This document shows, one piece after another, positions 4,246 to 51,478 of a stretch of 64,000 nt of DNA. The notes beneath the pieces were generated by a model. It did not search any database, was not told the origin of the DNA, and saw nothing but the letters and a program-made list of their open reading frames with translations. Origin of the DNA: Bacilli bacterium (GTDB taxonomy: Bacteria > Bacillota_I > Bacilli_A > RFN20 > CAG-449); contig CAAEFC010000030.1 in assembly GCA_900755065.1 (NCBI GenBank), forward strand, positions 5,359 to 69,358, read 5' to 3'. A program made the position numbers and the translations under genes. Position 1 is the first letter of the stretch; every line of letters starts with the position of its first letter.

Positions 4246-4659
4246 TCAGATTTTTTTCGATATTTCTTCGGCGATCGCCGGGAGAGAAACGTGTTCCAGT
4301 TTGTTGGAACGGAATTCGAGTTTCAAACAGTCCTCGTTTGAATAACGCGGAATGACGTGAACGTGAAAGTGCATCACGGTCTGTCCGGCCACCGGATTGG
4401 TGTTGTTGATCAGATTGACTCCCTTCGCGTTCAGAGAACCTACTTGCGCCTGAGCGATTCGCTGAGCGCTGCCCATGACTTTGCTCAGAATGTCTTTCGG
4501 AACATAGAGCAGATTGGCGAAATGCTTCTTGCTGATCACCAAGGTATGCCCTAACGTCGTCTGAGAAATGTCGAGAAAGGCGAGAACGTCGTCGTCTTCG
4601 TAAACTTTATAGCAGGGGATTTCGCCGCGCACGATTTTGCAGAAAATGCAGTCATCCAT
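4246..4659 (-). CDS. HIT-family (histidine triad) nucleotide hydrolase
   Basis: 137 aa. Has the canonical histidine triad HFHVHVIPR and the N-terminal CIFCKI motif. Confidence 0.85.
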   Translation of the reverse strand: MDDCIFCKIVRGEIPCYKVYEDDDVLAFLDISQTTLGHTLVISKKHFANLLYVPKDILSKVMGSAQRIAQAQVGSLNAKGVNLINNTNPVAGQTVMHFHVHVIPRYSNEDCLKLEFRSNKLEHVSLPAIAEEISKKI

Positions 4660-4698
4660 ATCCTATCCTTCTTTCTGCTTTCTATTTTAGCACGGAAA

Positions 4699-4730
4699 GA
4701 AAAAAAAGAAAGGGAGTTTCGACTCCCTTT
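4699..4730 (-). terminator. Rho-independent terminator downstream of the lipoprotein gene
   Basis: On the minus strand: AGGGAGT-CGAA-ACTCCCT followed by TTTCTTTTTTTT. Confidence 0.55.
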
Positions 4731-4734
4731 TCAT

Positions 4735-6222
4735 TTATTTGATGATTTCGGAATAATTGCTGACGATGTAATCGTAGAAATCCTGATCGTGAATGTTCGA
4801 TCCGACATCATACTGTTGCAGATAGTAGACCAAAGCGTTGCGCTGGTTGGTCGAAGAATCGGCGAGACCGTAAGCGATATCGATGATATCGTCGGTGTAC
4901 GTCACTTTTCCGTCGACGGTGTTGTTTTCGATCAGTCCGCTGATGACGGAAGAAGTATAGTACTTATTGACGACGACGATGTAGTACGCGTCGCTGGTCG
5001 AATCGTAGGTGTAATACTTGCCGAGAGAACTTCCGTTCAGCACGTCTTTCGGCGTCAGGAAGGCGACGCCTCCGTTGTCTCCGGTCGAAATGTAGGAAGC
5101 GATGCTGGCGGAGAACAGCCGGTCGGTGACTCCGCTAGGCAGATCGCTGATACCTGCCGAACGGGTATAAATGTCGTCGCCGGTGAAATCCTTCTGGTAC
5201 AGTTCACGCAATTTCAGTTCTTCGCCCCATTCGACGGTGTACGCACCCGAGCCGGTGTAGGTATCTTCGATATCCTGATCGGTGTCATCGCGATTCAGAA
5301 GAACGTAATTTCCGGTTTCGTCCTTTTTCAGGTTCCCGTTTTCGTCTTTTTCGACGATCTTGGACAGGTCTTCGTCGATTTCATTGGCCAGCGTATAGTA
5401 GCGCGAAATGTAATCGTTGATCCGTTCGGCGCGGGTCAGTTCGTCTCCCGTCAGCCCTTCGGTATCCTGCTCGACGCCCTTGTAGATGGCCTGCAATTCG
5501 TCGAGGTCGATTTCGCCCGTCGGCTGGGCAATGTAATTTCCCAACCATTCGAGAATCAGTTTGTTGACTTCGCCGGCCTTGTTCTTGAAGTTTTCCAGTT
5601 TGATGTACTGAACGTCTCTCGCGCTGGCGCGGCTGAGGGAAGAAATCGAGTTTTCGCAAAGGTATTTCGCGGTCAGCAATTTTTTCAGAACTTCCGGTTT
5701 GAGTTGTTTTTCGATGTATTCGGTGTAATCCGCTTTGAAGACATCTTCAAACGTGTCTTCCGGCCCGATCAGATAGAGTTTGTTGTAATTGGTTTTGCCT
5801 GTGCTGTCGGCGAAACTGATCGTCGGATACGAGGAACGAAGGGAATTGACGTATTTCTCTTCGTCGAACAGGCGGTTGGTGGAATAACTTCCTCCTTTGA
5901 CGGTGTCCAGAATCATATCCTGACAGATTTCGGTGATCTTCGCTTCGTCGGTAAACGAACCGATGACTTCGGTCTCCGCGATGCGGGTGACCAGTTCGTC
6001 GAAAATGGTCGTGTTGGTCGTCCCTCCGTCGACGAGATCGTTATAGATGGTTTCGATGGTATTGCGGAAGTAGTCCGTATCCTTATCGACGAAATCGACG
6101 ATCGGAGAGTCGATGTTTTTCGGCTGCGCTTCGACATCGCTGCTGCAACCGGTAAGAACCAATCCCATCGAAAGACAGGACAGAACGAGTAATGTTTTTC
6201 TCCATTGAATTTTCATTTTCAT
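4735..6222 (-). CDS. Lipoprotein of unknown function (D/T/Y-rich, secreted)
   Basis: 495 aa with signal peptide and lipobox LVLTGC|SS. GGAG RBS upstream. No catalytic motif recognised. Confidence 0.6.
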   Translation of the reverse strand: MKMKIQWRKTLLVLSCLSMGLVLTGCSSDVEAQPKNIDSPIVDFVDKDTDYFRNTIETIYNDLVDGGTTNTTIFDELVTRIAETEVIGSFTDEAKITEICQDMILDTVKGGSYSTNRLFDEEKYVNSLRSSYPTISFADSTGKTNYNKLYLIGPEDTFEDVFKADYTEYIEKQLKPEVLKKLLTAKYLCENSISSLSRASARDVQYIKLENFKNKAGEVNKLILEWLGNYIAQPTGEIDLDELQAIYKGVEQDTEGLTGDELTRAERINDYISRYYTLANEIDEDLSKIVEKDENGNLKKDETGNYVLLNRDDTDQDIEDTYTGSGAYTVEWGEELKLRELYQKDFTGDDIYTRSAGISDLPSGVTDRLFSASIASYISTGDNGGVAFLTPKDVLNGSSLGKYYTYDSTSDAYYIVVVNKYYTSSVISGLIENNTVDGKVTYTDDIIDIAYGLADSSTNQRNALVYYLQQYDVGSNIHDQDFYDYIVSNYSEIIK

Positions 6223-44017: not shown

Positions 44018-45352
44018 ATGAAAAAGAAAAAAGCCGTTGCCGTATGCATAGGCGTCGTCGGAGGTCTTTGCCTTCTTTCGGTTCCTGTCCTCCTTATGCA
44101 AACGGAAAAAGAAGCCAGTTTCAGAAGATATCGGAAAAAGTACAGCCTCGACGAATGGAAGGCGATCGAAACGGCTTCGTTCCGTCCGTTGAATTCGATC
44201 GTCTATCCCGACGAAACCTACAAGAAAGAAGAGGTCGATGAGGCTTATATCACGGCGGTTTCTGACTTTGCTTATCGCATTTACGATCGGATTTCCGCGC
44301 AAAAAGCCAATAGTTTTTTTTCGCCTTTGGGATTATATGCCAATCTGGATTTGATTTCGTCGGTTTCCTCCGATGAAGCGGCGAAAGAAGAATTCGACCT
44401 TCTGCTCGGATTGGATGCGGACAAACGAAAAGCGAATTTTTCCAGAATGCAGCGAACCGATTGCTACGTCGAAGAGAACGGGACGATTCAGATGCATAAC
44501 GGCGTTTTCTTTACCGACGATTATTCGGTCGATCCGACAGTCGTCGGGGAGTTGACTATGCGTCGCGCGGAAGCGTATCAGATCGATTTTCAGAATGAAT
44601 CGGCGCGAGAAAAGATGCTCTCCTGGGTCGACCGTCAAATGGGAGAAAAGGGGTTTATCGACGAAAAAGACCTGGAAATCGACGCGGATACGGCGATGTT
44701 GTTTTTGACGACGGTTTACTTTTCCAACCGCTGGGAGAACATGTTTTCCGCTTCAAACAGCGAGACGGACACTTTTTACGGATCGGAAAGAAACGAGCAG
44801 ATCACCTATATGCGACATACGTACGCGGGCATCGTTTACGATTACGGGGATTACGTTTCCTTTTACGACGCGTATACGAACGGTGCGAAAATTCAGTATC
44901 TGGTTCCTAAATCCGTCGAGGATTCCATCGACGAACTCGTCAAGGGCGTCGATTTTCTGAAAGAAGACGAAGAAGCGCGACTTCCGGGATGCATCATCGA
45001 TCTGAGCGTGCCGAAATTTACGTCGGAAGCGCAGTTTGATTTCACGGAAACGCTGAAAGAAGAAGGATTGAACCTCGTGTTCGACCGGACGCGTCCCAGC
45101 CTGAACGGAGCCTTTACCGATGCCGATCAGGTCGTTTATTTGCAATACGTTCGTCAGAAGAGCCGCCTTTCGTTCGACGAAGACGGAACCGAGATCAAAT
45201 CGCTGACGTTTTCAAAAGGTAGTAGCAGGTCCATCAGCCCGGCGATTGAAGGCGAAACGATGAAGATTCAGTTGAACCAGCCGTTCCTCTACGTCGTTTA
45301 CGATTCCAACGACCTTCCGCTTTACATGGGAAAAGTCGATCAGCCGAATTAA
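44018..45352 (+). CDS. Serpin-family serine protease inhibitor with N-terminal membrane anchor/signal
   Basis: Serpin blocks FFSPLGL, TVYFSNRWENMF, the hinge-like FDEDGTEIKSLTF, and the C-terminal NQPFLYVVYD...LPLYMGKVDQP. Confidence 0.8.
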   Translation: MKKKKAVAVCIGVVGGLCLLSVPVLLMQTEKEASFRRYRKKYSLDEWKAIETASFRPLNSIVYPDETYKKEEVDEAYITAVSDFAYRIYDRISAQKANSFFSPLGLYANLDLISSVSSDEAAKEEFDLLLGLDADKRKANFSRMQRTDCYVEENGTIQMHNGVFFTDDYSVDPTVVGELTMRRAEAYQIDFQNESAREKMLSWVDRQMGEKGFIDEKDLEIDADTAMLFLTTVYFSNRWENMFSASNSETDTFYGSERNEQITYMRHTYAGIVYDYGDYVSFYDAYTNGAKIQYLVPKSVEDSIDELVKGVDFLKEDEEARLPGCIIDLSVPKFTSEAQFDFTETLKEEGLNLVFDRTRPSLNGAFTDADQVVYLQYVRQKSRLSFDEDGTEIKSLTFSKGSSRSISPAIEGETMKIQLNQPFLYVVYDSNDLPLYMGKVDQPN

Positions 45353-47953: not shown

Positions 47954-48093
47954 GGGTGCACCTCGGGAAGGCCTTGTTTCGACCTCCTCACCCAATATAA
48001 CAGACGAACGGCGAAAATTATTTTAAAAACAATAATTTTTTTGATATTCGATTCAACTTCTAATTTTTTTCGCCGTTTGATACAATAAAGCGT

Positions 48094-49059
48094 ATGAAAA
48101 AGATCAGAAGCCTGTTGAAAATGACCTATGAAGAACGAATGGTGCTGACGACGATCCTCTCGTTGTCCGGCGGCGTGATTCTCGCCGTGGGTAAAATCGT
48201 CGCCGGATTGTTCTCGGATCTCATTCTCTTCGCTCTGGGCGTTTTCAACCTGCTTCTGCTTCTGGCCAAATTGCAATGCCTGATCGGAATCAAAAAAGGA
48301 GAGAACAATTTTTACGCGCGGAATCTTTCGGTTGCCGTCCTGCTTTTCATCGCCGGCGTCGTTTATATCGCTTACGTCGTTTCCGATTTGATTCTCGCGT
48401 ATCCGGACAAGGTGTACACGCGTTTTACCTCCATCGCGATTACGGCGATTGCCTTTTTGGAAATGGGATTGGCGATCCGCGGCCTGGTGAAAACCAAGTA
48501 TCGGGGACATTATTACCGGGATATCAAGATCATCAGCCTGATTTCCGCGATGACGGCGATGATGACCGCGCAGATCGCCTTGCTCTCCTTTTCTTCCGAA
48601 GAGGATATGTCGGTCTACAACAGTTACGTCGGCATCGCCGTCGGGGTAATCACGCTTCTGTTAGCGATTTACGTGTACTTCGCGCCGGAAATATCTCTCT
48701 CCGATCGGAGTCATCAGGTTTTTCGTCCCCGAAACGCGAACGTGCCTTTTCTTCCCGACGGAGAGATCCTCTTGGTTTCGAGTCGGATCTACGGCGATTA
48801 CGTGTTTCGTTTCGAGCGGAAAGACAGCCTACTGGAAGGCGATATCGTCAGGAAACCCGGTCTTCTCAGAAGAATGCCTCTGGGGGCGAAAATCGTCTGC
48901 GCCGTTCTTTCCGAAATTTTGATTTTCGTCTGGCTGATCGGCTATTTCATTACCTTTTTCCGCACGCTCAACCTCCCTCTGAAACTGCAAAAGCGAATGG
49001 AAGAAAGCGGATTTGAAAAAATCGAAGAATCGGAAAAAGAAGCCTTGACAAAGGGCTAA
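48094..49059 (+). CDS. Multi-pass membrane protein of unknown function
   Basis: 321 aa, about 6 TM spans plus a soluble segment. Divergent from the ECF sigma gene, with a 140-nt intergenic region. Confidence 0.45.
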   Translation: MKKIRSLLKMTYEERMVLTTILSLSGGVILAVGKIVAGLFSDLILFALGVFNLLLLLAKLQCLIGIKKGENNFYARNLSVAVLLFIAGVVYIAYVVSDLILAYPDKVYTRFTSIAITAIAFLEMGLAIRGLVKTKYRGHYYRDIKIISLISAMTAMMTAQIALLSFSSEEDMSVYNSYVGIAVGVITLLLAIYVYFAPEISLSDRSHQVFRPRNANVPFLPDGEILLVSSRIYGDYVFRFERKDSLLEGDIVRKPGLLRRMPLGAKIVCAVLSEILIFVWLIGYFITFFRTLNLPLKLQKRMEESGFEKIEESEKEALTKG

Positions 49060-49124
49060 CGGTTCGCTGAACCGTTAACCCGAAAGGGCTTCGGATATGC
49101 TATCGTGATCATGGAGGTGATACG

Positions 49125-49610
49125 ATGGCGGAAGAAAGTTTTGACGGTCTGATCAATGCGATTCAGAACGCGTTTATTCGCGTGAACCAAATGGCGGAAA
49201 GTCAGCATCTCGATCTGATCAGCCAGTATTTCGACGAAAAGAATCAACCGATCTGCGTCGAATTTGTTTATCCTTACGTCGATGCGACGGGAGAGTCCGC
49301 GGAAAAGAAAATCCGGATACCGAAACTGTGCTTAGTGCCGATTTCTTCTTTGAAACTGAGCGAAATCAGCGTGGATTTCAAGGTTCGTCTGGCCGGAAAG
49401 GTGTCTTTGAAAACGGGAGAAAGCGAAATTCCGAAACAGGTCGACCGTCTGCTGAAAAGCGATCGGGAGCGATCGTTTCTGGGCTATATCCCGTCGGGCA
49501 GAAGAAATCACGAGGAAAGTTATGCGAACATCGTCCTGAAATTTCAATCGGAAGATCCGCCGGAAGGATTGATGCGCATTCAGGACGAGTTAATCAGGGT
49601 TACCGCATAA
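49125..49610 (+). CDS. Uncharacterised beta-rich protein, DUF2589-like (paralog A)
   Basis: GGAGGTGA RBS. Shares the blocks IPxLxLVPxxxLxIxxVxxxF and PPEGLxRxxDxL with the next gene. The family assignment is from memory, not from a search. Confidence 0.5.
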   Translation: MAEESFDGLINAIQNAFIRVNQMAESQHLDLISQYFDEKNQPICVEFVYPYVDATGESAEKKIRIPKLCLVPISSLKLSEISVDFKVRLAGKVSLKTGESEIPKQVDRLLKSDRERSFLGYIPSGRRNHEESYANIVLKFQSEDPPEGLMRIQDELIRVTA

Positions 49611-49622
49611 AGGAGGAAGAAT

Positions 49623-50204
49623 ATGGCAACGGAAATACAGAATCAGTTTACCGGTCTGGACATGGCCGCGTTGATCGGAGGACCTTTGAAAGCGGTCTGT
49701 TCCGCGCAGGCGATGCTTGCGGTTTCGACAGCAGATTTCATCACCGATGTGTGCATGGAAAAGGATTCCGAAGGCAAACCGACATCGCTTTCGACGGCGA
49801 ATTTCGCTTTCGACCGCGTCGTTACGAATTCGGAAACAGGGGCGATTTCGACGGAAAAAGTCAATATGAGCATTCCGATTCTTTCCATCGTCAATGTGCC
49901 GAATCTGGAAATCGACGATGTGAAAATCGTTTTCGACATGGAAGTGAAAGAAACCACGTCGCATGAAGAAAAGAAAGATAAAGAGGGAAAACTCGACGCC
50001 GACGCGCATTTGAAAATCGGGCCGTTCAACATGAACGTGAAAGTGTCGGGTTCGGTCTCCTGCCACGAAGCCAACACGCGAAGCACCGACAATTCGGCGA
50101 AGTACCACGTCGAAGTGCACGCGAGCAACGGCCCTTTGCCGGAAGGCCTTTCCCGCGTACTGGACATTCTGGCGGGTTCGATCGCCCCGATCGGCGGCAA
50201 GTAG
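49623..50204 (+). CDS. Uncharacterised beta-rich protein, DUF2589-like (paralog B)
   Basis: AGGAGG RBS, 12 nt after paralog A. N-terminus LIGGPLKAVCSAQAMLA, central IPILSIVNVPNLEIDDVKIVFDMEV, C-terminal LPEGLSRVLDIL. Confidence 0.5.
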   Translation: MATEIQNQFTGLDMAALIGGPLKAVCSAQAMLAVSTADFITDVCMEKDSEGKPTSLSTANFAFDRVVTNSETGAISTEKVNMSIPILSIVNVPNLEIDDVKIVFDMEVKETTSHEEKKDKEGKLDADAHLKIGPFNMNVKVSGSVSCHEANTRSTDNSAKYHVEVHASNGPLPEGLSRVLDILAGSIAPIGGK

Positions 50205-50206
50205 CG

Positions 50207-50473
50207 GTGCGCGAGGAAAAAAACGTCTTTTCCTATCCGGAAATCGTCTACGTCCGAAGAGTCGTCGTCGGAAACAGCCGTCCCGACAAATGGCTGAGCG
50301 AGGCGGAGATCGCAAAGCAACAGGAGGAAGTGAACCGTCTTCTGAATGAATTTCCCCGGGGACGGATCATCGGTCTTGAAAAAAACGTGTATTTGCTGAA
50401 TTGGGGAGAGCATCAGGCGATCGTTCAGTATTTGGTTTACATCGGATTTACCAAAAGAATCGGAAAGGAGTAA
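50207..50473 (+). CDS. Hypothetical 88-aa protein
   Basis: GTG start 2 nt after the preceding stop. No recognisable motif, and the RBS is weak. Confidence 0.4.
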   Translation: MREEKNVFSYPEIVYVRRVVVGNSRPDKWLSEAEIAKQQEEVNRLLNEFPRGRIIGLEKNVYLLNWGEHQAIVQYLVYIGFTKRIGKE

Positions 50474-50476
50474 AAA

Positions 50477-51478
50477 ATGCATTTTGTAACGGTTTATTTC
50501 GACGGCGAAGGTCCGAATCGGGAAGACAGGTATTCGATTCTTCTGCCCTGCGTGTGGAAAGAAAGCGGTCTGTCCGATACGATTTTCCGGAAACTGATGA
50601 ATAATTACGGCGAAAGTTGTTTCGATATCGACGAAGTTTTCGATGAGATCGAAGGCGATCCGTCGGAAAACCTCATCGTTTTGCTGGAAGAAGACGATCT
50701 GGAAAGGGTCAAATCGAAGATTCTCCGCTTTATCCTGAACATGGAGTTTCTTTTGGAATGGCTCTTCTGCTCAGATGAATTGGACGAAATCGTCGCGTTC
50801 GCCACGAACGGCGAATGCACGTCCTATTCGGAATACAAATTGGAGAAGAAGGAAGCCTCGACGGCGGATTTTTACATCGGGAACATCGGAGGGCGGTTTG
50901 TCTATCGGTATCGGAATACACTTCGTTTCGATCTCTGTTATCCGTTCTACGACGGAGGAAAACGGCCGTTGAATCCAACCGCATTCAATCAGGCGTGCCT
51001 GGCGATTCTTCAAGAAGAAGATGTGGCGGACGTCCCGCATTCGGTTTCTGCGTTTCTGAACTGGTTCACCGAAAACTGCATGGAATTTGAAGACTGGTTC
51101 GACGCGATCGGCGAAGACGAATTCGATGGTTACTGGAACAACGCGAAAGACCGACGCGTCATCGAACTTCTGCGCCGTTTTCCGAGAGGAAATCACGAAT
51201 GGCTGATGGTTTCCCGAACCGATCGGTTCAAGAAAATGGGCGTTTCCGCGAAGATGCTCGACGATCTGGTGACGCCGACCAAAGACCTGCTTTTCAAATC
51301 GGGCGGAAGACACGGAGGAAAGCGAAGCGGAACTTTCCACCTCGCCCTGAAAAATCGGATCGATGGCGCCGGAGATTGCGACGGGTTGTTTGCCAGACTG
51401 AAAGCCTTGATCGCGGAATGGGTCGAAAGCAAAGATGAAACGAAAAAACTGACGGACCTGATCGACCATTATCGGTAA
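50477..51478 (+). CDS. Hypothetical acidic 333-aa protein
   Basis: AAGGAG RBS, starting 3 nt after the preceding stop. No TM, signal peptide or catalytic motif recognised. Confidence 0.5.
   Translation: MHFVTVYFDGEGPNREDRYSILLPCVWKESGLSDTIFRKLMNNYGESCFDIDEVFDEIEGDPSENLIVLLEEDDLERVKSKILRFILNMEFLLEWLFCSDELDEIVAFATNGECTSYSEYKLEKKEASTADFYIGNIGGRFVYRYRNTLRFDLCYPFYDGGKRPLNPTAFNQACLAILQEEDVADVPHSVSAFLNWFTENCMEFEDWFDAIGEDEFDGYWNNAKDRRVIELLRRFPRGNHEWLMVSRTDRFKKMGVSAKMLDDLVTPTKDLLFKSGGRHGGKRSGTFHLALKNRIDGAGDCDGLFARLKALIAEWVESKDETKKLTDLIDHYR

Follow-up and report, generated by a model that had tools for sequence, protein, structure and literature searches.

Which of four genes packed almost end to end belong together, and what would such a set do for the cell that carries it? 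The question is raised by a short operon in a 64,000-nucleotide (nt) stretch of DNA from a Bacilli bacterium of the CAG-449 lineage (NCBI GenBank assembly GCA_900755065.1, contig CAAEFC010000030.1, positions 5,359 to 69,358 of the forward strand), which is referred to here as the window. A preliminary description of the window, made from its sequence alone, had picked out four co-directional open reading frames (ORFs), here called genes A, B, C and D, as an operon built around a pair of paralogous proteins resembling the domain of unknown function DUF2589. We find that the conserved unit is a three-gene cassette, A-B-C, and that the fourth position is swappable and is filled here by D, a predicted toxin-domain protein. 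What the cassette does is a matter of probabilities. The reading we prefer, at a probability of about 40%, is that the locus is one copy of a mobile, strongly conserved trio with a swappable effector, the trio being a holin- or gasdermin-like membrane-breaching module that works without transmembrane (TM) helices and lets leaderless effectors act.

The conserved unit

Gene calls made independently on more than 20 metagenome contigs from the same species give the same four genes, and both their coordinates and the spacers of 12, 2 and 3 nt (A/B, B/C and C/D, respectively) agree with the preliminary description. Its count of three strong Shine-Dalgarno sites also holds: these precede A (GGAGGTG, 49113-49119), B (AAGGAGG) and D (GGAAAGGAG), and the site of C is weak. 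GC content is flat at 0.48-0.51 over the cassette and its flanks, in line with the backbone-like base composition noted before.

Other copies of the locus were reached through homologs of B, of which 672 were found. In four other genomes an A ortholog precedes B (43-57% identity) and a C ortholog follows it (43-55%), and in the same four genomes the gene at the D position and the gene upstream of the cassette are without similarity between loci. A survey of one genome per species, with genes called crudely as longest ORFs and the A, B and C families located by hidden Markov models (HMMs), identified 442 genomes that encode a B relative, and the counts of loci given below rest on the best 80. 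Of the 80 loci, 69 contain members of all three families and 58 have them in the exact order A-B-C; the median gap is 36 nt between A and B and 17 nt between B and C. The proposed four-gene unit does not stand as a quartet and does stand as a trio conserved across genomes, A-B-C being syntenic in related genomes and D and the flanking genes not.

The trio is widespread. B is 46-60% identical to the window protein across at least six phyla (Bacillota, Pseudomonadota, Actinomycetota, Myxococcota, Spirochaetota and Chloroflexota), in hosts that include Clostridia, Negativicutes, Vibrio/Aliivibrio, Xanthomonas, Luteibacter, Roseateles, Massilia, Caulobacterales, Amycolatopsis, Nannocystis, Brachyspira and Ktedonobacterales, and the cassette is alike in Gram-positive and Gram-negative bacteria. 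Its distribution is patchy, which points to horizontal transfer. Within the species, changes in B number 10 synonymous to 0 non-synonymous, and those in A 5 to 1. The identity of B across phyla, taken together with its synonymous-only change within the species, indicates that the core is both mobile and strongly constrained.

Some lineages have other arrangements. Amycolatopsis loci (L058-L061) read B-A-B without a detectable C, Massilia/Duganella loci (L062, L086, L087) have the order A-C...B, and Xanthomonas loci (L079-L089) have an extra DUF2589-like gene of 157 amino acids (aa) after C. Two loci in Ruminococcus/Lachnospiraceae metagenome-assembled genomes (L071, L075) read B-x-B-C and are preceded by an Amidase_2+lysozyme fusion. 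Here the cassette is followed by a partner-switching set of STAS, SpoIIE-phosphatase and anti-sigma-kinase genes, which suggests that in some lineages the cassette is under post-translational control in response to stress.

Table 1. Positions of the four genes and their sub-features within the window
Feature	Position	Strand	Description
Gene A	49125-49610	+	161 aa; short DUF2589 paralog
Gene B	49623-50204	+	193 aa; long DUF2589 paralog; best-conserved cassette component
B sub-feature, residues 124-145	49992-50057	+	Amphipathic beta-hairpin; candidate membrane-inserting element
Gene C	50207-50473	+	88 aa, GTG start; third core component
Gene D	50477-51478	+	333 aa
D N-terminal region, residues 1-199	50477-51073	+	Lineage-specific; possible adaptor or targeting region
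D C-terminal polymorphic-toxin domain, residues ~200-333	51074-51478	+	Predicted effector; occupies the variable +1 position
RNA hairpin in the 5' leader of gene A	49099-49129	+	Possible translational gate; this species only

The DUF2589 proteins A and B

The suggested assignment of A and B to DUF2589 (Pfam PF11655) is confirmed, since both exceed the family's gathering score of 23 bits: A scores 80.2 bits (E = 2.8e-22) over positions 2-151 of the 154-position model, and B 141.3 bits (E = 4.3e-41) over positions 2-152. The two had also been described as clear paralogs by eye. Their paralogy stands and the clarity does not, as a pairwise BLASTP comparison of A with B gives nothing significant, while the A-family and B-family profiles, aligned with HHalign, match with 97% probability (E = 9.4e-11) across 153 columns that are 17% identical. 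This alignment superposes IRIPKLCLVP...VDFKV of A on MSIPILSIVN...VFDMEV of B and, as a second block, PPEGLMRIQDELI on LPEGLSRVLDIL, the very two blocks that had been noted earlier. As judged from these profiles, the paralogy of A and B is real but distant.

An AlphaFold2 (AF2) model of B has moderate confidence (mean predicted local distance difference test score, pLDDT, of 66.6). It comprises a confident 30-residue N-terminal helix, a five-stranded sheet and a C-terminal helix bearing a PPEG motif that is common to A. The sole low-confidence element of the monomer (pLDDT <50) is a long central hairpin. In an alignment of 81 B-type sequences the column means of residues 124-145 alternate strictly between hydrophobic and polar, and the highest beta-hydrophobic moment in B falls within this hairpin. 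Its tip is G133-P134-F135 (GP(F/W)), with Trp frequent at 132, and its flanks (110-121 and 144-158) are Ser/Thr-rich. Viral homologs of B, at 31-40% identity, keep the hairpin pattern and have aromatic or Gly-rich tips, e.g. NWWSP and GHFWGVGF. In the A-family alignment the stretch from the DFKV strand to the C-terminal PPEG motif shows no hydrophobic/polar alternation; A is a B-like scaffold in which a variable polar loop replaces the hairpin.

A hydropathy scan predicts no TM helix in any of the four proteins, which extends to A and B what had been stated earlier for C and D. The maximum 19-residue Kyte-Doolittle mean over A-D is 1.43, with no window >1.6 and with maxima of 1.15 for A, 1.43 for B and 0.65 for C, and neither A nor B has an N-terminal hydrophobic signal of the kind found in signal peptides.

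Searches for relatives of the pair gave little. A Foldseek comparison of the B model, in which the hairpin region has pLDDT <50, with the PDB returned noise (best E = 0.22, TM-score <0.2), and against viral models it returned only one unnamed relative. PDB sequences yielded no meaningful match to B or to the A, B and C profiles, and Pfam, NCBIfam and PHROGs hold nothing for A and B beyond DUF2589, nor any holin family match in Pfam or PHROGs. No functional literature on DUF2589 was found, only two passing mentions, in a search that did not extend to supplementary tables. In Archaeoglobus fulgidus, four consecutive short DUF2589-related genes, AF0414-AF0417, are induced on lactate (PMC3949148), and in Bacteroides fragilis the DUF2589 gene BF9343_2744 is listed among meropenem-responsive genes (PMC11402942).

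Protein C

The third component is a small, well-conserved alpha/beta protein. An alignment of 41 sequences has a mean column identity of 52% and the motif VVGN...LNRCL...GEHQ...YHxGFxRKPxW, and the family is present in the 69 loci that hold the full trio. A word-indexed homolog search with C returned same-species copies only, and C has no relative in Pfam, NCBIfam, PHROGs, the PDB or PADLOC. The last two proteins of the operon had both been described as lacking a recognisable motif, which holds for C in that it matches no family and fails for D, which has a polymorphic-toxin domain at residues ~200-320.

Gene D and its toxin domain

A word-indexed search with D likewise returned only same-species copies. 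That D is an orphan was nevertheless rejected by an exhaustive HMMER search, in which 282 proteins match residues ~200-320. These proteins are 112-3037 aa long and nearly all have the domain at their very C-terminal end, followed by a median of 11 residues, and the carriers include TPS/DUF637 (CdiA-type), RHS-repeat and PT-HINT proteins. A C-terminal domain that caps varied trafficking architectures defines a toxin module in polymorphic toxin systems, and the C-terminal domain of D is read as such a module because of its extreme C-terminal position on CdiA-type, RHS and PT-HINT carriers. By this sequence criterion D is a toxin-domain protein. The motif PGG-HEW ... HGG-GS ... HNE ... LP-GL runs through more than 280 members; H240, E241, W242, H279 and H288 are invariant and S284 nearly so, and D retains all six. 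The domain belongs to no Pfam family and has no PDB sequence match, and its AF2 model, with pLDDT of 94-98, meets only noise in a Foldseek search of D against the PDB. As modelled, the domain appears to represent a separate toxin fold that has yet to be catalogued. The structure searches that had been proposed for these proteins thus leave both B and D without a meaningful fold match in the PDB.

The N-terminal region of D is modelled with low to moderate confidence. Residues 1-199 have no Pfam or NCBIfam match, no known trafficking domain (LXG, PAAR, TPS or RHS) was found in a Pfam scan of D, and the region is shared only with the protein P0124, the nearest relative of D (31% identity over the full length), whose gene directly follows a DUF2589-DUF2589-89-aa cassette. 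D-type toxins follow three independent cassettes (in the window, L095 and L016), and other members of the toxin family stand alone among housekeeping genes. Within the species no other gene of the locus is as polymorphic as D: one comparison gives 8 synonymous to 13 non-synonymous changes, and its 90%-identity cluster holds 27 variants, including truncations of 80, 169 and 264 aa.

Does an immunity gene accompany the toxin? In the window the next gene, 88 nt away, encodes a Flavin_Reduct protein, and the genes after the D-like toxins of L095 and L016 are HTH-like and GH25-like, unrelated to Flavin_Reduct and to each other. No gene is shared downstream of the D-like toxins at these three loci, and the flavin reductase was rejected as an immunity protein since the other D-like loci do not share it. 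The lack of a conserved immunity gene after D-type toxins fits a self-directed or lysis-coupled action, although an unrecognised one may lie elsewhere.

The membership of the D domain in a pool of secreted interbacterial toxins (CdiA, RHS, PT-HINT) raises the possibility that the cassette packages and delivers effectors for antagonism, A and B forming a polymer (a shell, tube or fibre) that would enclose, carry or display the adjacent toxin or lysin in the manner of Hcp or of an encapsulin with its cargo, and later free it against competitors. The N-terminal region private to D and P0124 could then be a loading or adaptor domain, yet no adaptor common to the different effectors was seen. The very high conservation of B and the pairing of paralogs would fit self-assembly, and viral A/B pairs adjoin giant fibre-like genes (1,189-2,427 aa); no likeness of fold to Hcp, tail-tube, encapsulin or other shell proteins was found. 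Three soluble proteins alone cannot cross Gram-negative envelopes, and yet the cassette is the same in both Gram types, and the finding of no recognisable immunity gene also speaks against this reading. We regard this explanation as improbable.

The swappable position and its surroundings

The position after the cassette (+1) is occupied by genes of many kinds. These include DNase-I/CdtB-like EEP nucleases, a patatin, a DUF4231 protein with two TM helices (2-TM), the D-type toxin, an SH3-like protein plus Amidase_2, GH24 lysozyme, CHAP and GH19-like enzymes, Amidase_2 plus a GH-E nuclease, and a third DUF2589-like gene. Near-identical cassettes differ at +1 only, where L148/L149 have an EEP nuclease and L007/L008 an 83-aa ORF. 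The +1 position is a hypervariable effector slot, filled in the window by D.

Cell-wall hydrolases are concentrated around the cassette. Their families account for 26/454 genes within 3 positions vs 2/872 farther genes (odds ratio 26, p = 9e-11), and integrases for 19/454 vs 2/872 (odds ratio 19), figures to be read with the facts that the enrichment HMMs were built from near-cassette clusters and that the genomes are phylogenetically non-independent. A Pfam scan of 300 proximal genes found 9 GH108, 9 Amidase_2, 4 CHAP, 3 phage-lysozyme and 2 VgrG3-C hits, and among 150 random distal control genes no wall-hydrolase family occurs among the families with at least 2 members. The 23 neighbours that belong to GH108, Amidase_2/lysozyme and CHAP all run in the direction of the cassette and have no N-terminal hydrophobic signal, a pattern shown by at least three unrelated hydrolase families in different phyla. 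A leaderless endolysin is adjacent in 22 of the 80 loci; the window is not one of these, a toxin-domain protein adjoining the cassette there. A canonical small-TM holin is missing from most of these hydrolase operons. Vibrio SLT neighbours were dropped as evidence for a lysin association, being on the opposite strand and membrane-anchored.

Might these neighbours simply be there by chance or history? On this account A-B-C would have a cytoplasmic role that is independent of its neighbours, the lysins, toxins and integrases would mark genomic islands or prophage remnants, and D would be independent of the trio. Thirty-three of the 80 loci (about 40%) have no further operonic gene besides the trio, D-type proteins are also found alone among housekeeping genes, and the Vibrio SLT neighbours are probably plain synteny. 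Such a view has difficulty with the start of D 3 nt after C behind a strong Shine-Dalgarno site of its own, with the recurrence of the same toxin domain after three separate cassettes, and with the adjacency and shared orientation of at least three unrelated leaderless hydrolase families in different phyla; nor do prophage remnants explain the lysins, given that only 1/50,697 phage records contains a relative. It is the least probable of the explanations considered here.

The cassette often lies on small integrative elements with integrase, Mob or HNH genes, and some copies stand beside TIR and SIR2-STALD genes, an AbiE pair, Mrr, integrases or mobilisation genes. On the 46-kb plasmid pVDT1 of Vibrio sp. 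16 (L098), where the B gene is unannotated in the record, the cassette is surrounded by a TcdA/TcdB-type glycosyltransferase toxin, a bacteriocin-type exporter (HlyD + peptidase-ABC), an AbiEi/AbiEii pair and an HNH nuclease.

Surroundings of this kind would suit abortive infection or other anti-phage defence, with A-B-C as a sensor or trigger that licenses the neighbouring effector to kill the cell. As in CBASS and Lamassu, a conserved core is joined to a swappable set of killers (patatin, HNH-type and GH-E nucleases, EEP nuclease, 2-TM, SLATT-like DUF4231, hydrolases), the distribution is patchy in a way that points to horizontal transfer, and integrases are enriched nearby. The fast evolution of D fits as well. 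Unlike those systems, the core has no nucleotide cyclase, ATPase or SMC component, and the effectors are bare single domains without a ligand- or signal-sensing module. A, B and C, likewise the upstream membrane protein, have no match in PADLOC-DB v2.0.0 at E <= 1, and D has only a sub-threshold match there, to the oligonucleotide-cyclase model PDLC00778 (E = 0.022, 11.6 bits). B is also unusually conserved, well beyond what is typical of defence sensors, T4-like phages have A/B pairs in their own genomes, and the neighbours in the window are of housekeeping type, with no compositional anomaly. We consider unlikely a defence role of this form; the preliminary description had likened the layout to envelope-stress or defence modules.

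Regulatory genes are frequent neighbours of the cassette (STAS/SpoIIE/anti-sigma kinase, two-component systems, LuxR/GerE, Mor, MazE/AbrB-like and sigma factors), as would be expected for a dangerous function. Among the 300 neighbouring genes no family of proteases is found repeatedly.

Viruses and plasmids

DUF2589 relatives are rare in phages and plasmids. Besides the single sequenced phage, 44 of 2.9 million IMG/VR contigs carry A/B pairs, always without C. These viral pairs (L101-L142) have two arrangements, B-A and A-B, in T4-like contexts, and in one viral lineage a holin-like ORF of 50-75 aa with a single TM helix lies beside the pair. The absence of C from the viral pairs, together with the rarity of relatives in phages, indicates that the A/B pair is the ancient unit and that C marks the cellular cassette. 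The simple label of a phage lysis gene was rejected on the same two grounds. Relatives occur on 7/72,556 plasmids and E. coli has no match at the DNA level, and the idea of a plasmid or E. coli accessory gene was rejected accordingly.

A possible mechanism

How could such a trio act? According to the reading we prefer, A, B and C would be made in the cytoplasm, without signal peptides or TM helices. On a trigger, B would oligomerise, probably with its hairpin-less paralog A, and the hairpin of B would insert into the cytoplasmic membrane from the inside to form a beta-barrel-type lesion. The small protein C would assist, as a chaperone or as an inhibitor holding A/B inactive. The lesion would kill the cell, and would open substrates or the outside to leaderless neighbours such as wall hydrolases, nucleases, phospholipases and toxin domains; in the window the partner effector would be D, acting after or through the lesion. 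A membrane lesion made by A/B is proposed because the trio has neither TM helices nor signals, one of the paralogs has the hairpin, leaderless hydrolases and other degradative enzymes are paired with the cassette, and no immunity gene was recognised. The survey establishes the conserved trio, the variable slot, the toxin nature of D, the enrichment among neighbours and the hairpin pattern; that a pore forms, what A and C do, and which end the module serves (abortive infection, competition or programmed release) we infer.

Several observations weigh against this proposal. Foldseek finds no beta-pore-forming or gasdermin fold for B, alternating hairpins are known too in soluble beta-sandwiches and assembly arms, and the conservation of B across phyla equally suits a structural polymer. 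The lesion could be supplied by other proteins at some loci, namely by the 2-TM DUF4231 protein that lies between C and CHAP in some cassettes and by a 109-aa ORF with 2-3 TM helices about 1.2 kb downstream in two Luteibacter loci. The window operon has no cell-wall hydrolase, the loci in which the trio stands alone have no adjacent effector, and the two qualifications attached to the enrichment figures count on the same side.

A wider claim is more tentative, and we would not favour it over its negation: DUF2589 A/B proteins may form a new class of membrane-breaching proteins without TM helices, acting from the cytoplasm as beta-hairpin analogues of holins or gasdermins and present in many phyla and in T4-like phages, which cells would have domesticated with C as a portable execution module that takes leaderless lysins or polymorphic-toxin domains. 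The rival explanations and the preferred one are not fully exclusive. An executioner that lyses the cell could work in defence as well as in competition.

Comparison with known systems

The nearest functional parallel for the lysin-bearing cassettes is with holin-endolysin and type 10 secretion systems (T10SS). In both, leaderless muralytic enzymes of unrelated families accompany a small non-enzymatic gene set under tight regulation with a potentially lethal output, and some cassettes have toxins, as T10SS loci do. Canonical holins require at least one TM helix, and A, B and C fail in this; they also match no holin family. The cassette further differs in being nearly absent from sequenced phages, and the window operon has a toxin instead of a lysin.

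A second parallel is with the beta-barrel pore-forming toxins (aerolysin/ETX-MTX2, alpha-haemolysin and the bicomponent leukocidins), whose hairpin pattern is the standard of comparison here. The amphipathic hairpin of B, with its aromatic tip and Ser/Thr-rich flanks, resembles theirs, and the two paralogous components of the cassette recall the bicomponent toxins. Unlike these toxins, A and B have no signal peptide, B is much smaller and has a long N-terminal helix, and A has no hairpin; the action would come from inside the producer cell. No fold match is significant, LukGH being found as noise (E = 0.22).

Bacterial gasdermins offer an analogy from the inside, being cytoplasmic proteins; like them, the cassette proteins would insert beta-hairpins into the cell's own membrane and so cause death, and they too are set in mobile or defence-type islands. 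The cassette has no Pfam or PDB fold match to gasdermins and no adjacent activating protease, and where a gasdermin is a single autoinhibited protein, the cassette has two paralogs and a small partner.

D alone can be assigned to a known kind, the polymorphic-toxin C-terminal domains. It shares a C-terminal module and fast evolution with the polymorphic toxins (CdiA of contact-dependent inhibition, CDI, as well as RHS and PT-HINT), and differs from them in having no known trafficking domain, no recognisable immunity gene following, an N-terminal region private to cassette-linked relatives and an unclassified toxin fold. In agreement with the preliminary description, no component has been placed in a characterised system by Pfam (beyond DUF2589), NCBIfam, PADLOC, PHROGs, or PDB sequences and folds. 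The DUF2589 cassette with its toxin/lysin slot has no characterised relative in the sequence, structure and literature resources that were searched.

Flanking genes and the leader of gene A

The identities given earlier to the upstream genes are upheld. The gene before A encodes a multi-pass membrane protein, and Pfam identifies the divergent pair beyond it as an extracytoplasmic function (ECF)-type sigma factor with sigma-70 r2/r4 domains and an RsgI-like anti-sigma factor. Their suggested standing as partners of the operon is not upheld across genomes: both are seen with the cassette only in this species, and other cassettes have different regulators or none. Neither the upstream membrane protein nor the N-terminal region of D has a relative among 9,450 ORFs around other cassettes, and both were rejected as conserved parts of the system.

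A scan of the region for sigma-70 promoters and terminators found nothing. A likely extended -10 promoter, TGATACAAT, lies at 48079-48087, just 5' of the membrane-protein gene, which gene callers start at 48121 (312 aa) and not at the first ATG, 48094 (321 aa).

The leader of gene A (49040-49130) has an unusually stable fold (z = -6.55). Its first hairpin (49040-49091), which is nested and has no T-run, overlaps the last codons and stop of the membrane-protein gene and ends just past them. The second has a minimum free energy of -16.1 kcal/mol (z = -4.46) and pairs across both the Shine-Dalgarno site and the AUG of A, so that a role in gating the translation of A is possible. The leader has no Rfam match. 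In six other cassettes the region before A has no counterpart of the second hairpin, and a conserved element that sequesters the Shine-Dalgarno site was rejected on that account.

Farther upstream, the window holds a serpin gene (444 aa, 44018-45352). In other contigs of the same species (L001-L006, at about 4400-5730) it is called as fragments of 252, 294 or 297 aa, which suggests frequent disruption or phase-like variation of this bacterial serpin.

Implications

If the preferred reading is true, the cassette would add to helical holins and gasdermins a third means by which cells and phages breach the cytoplasmic membrane from the inside, one that occurs from gut Clostridia to Xanthomonas, Vibrio and the actinomycetes. 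It would explain how many wall hydrolases and toxins that lack signals and lie outside prophages reach their targets, and a DUF known from hundreds of species would acquire a function. The polymorphic-toxin field would gain a new delivery context together with an unclassified toxin fold. Even if the pore model is wrong, a trio that is about 50% identical across phyla and has a swappable toxin/lysin slot is a concrete and cheap target for experiment.

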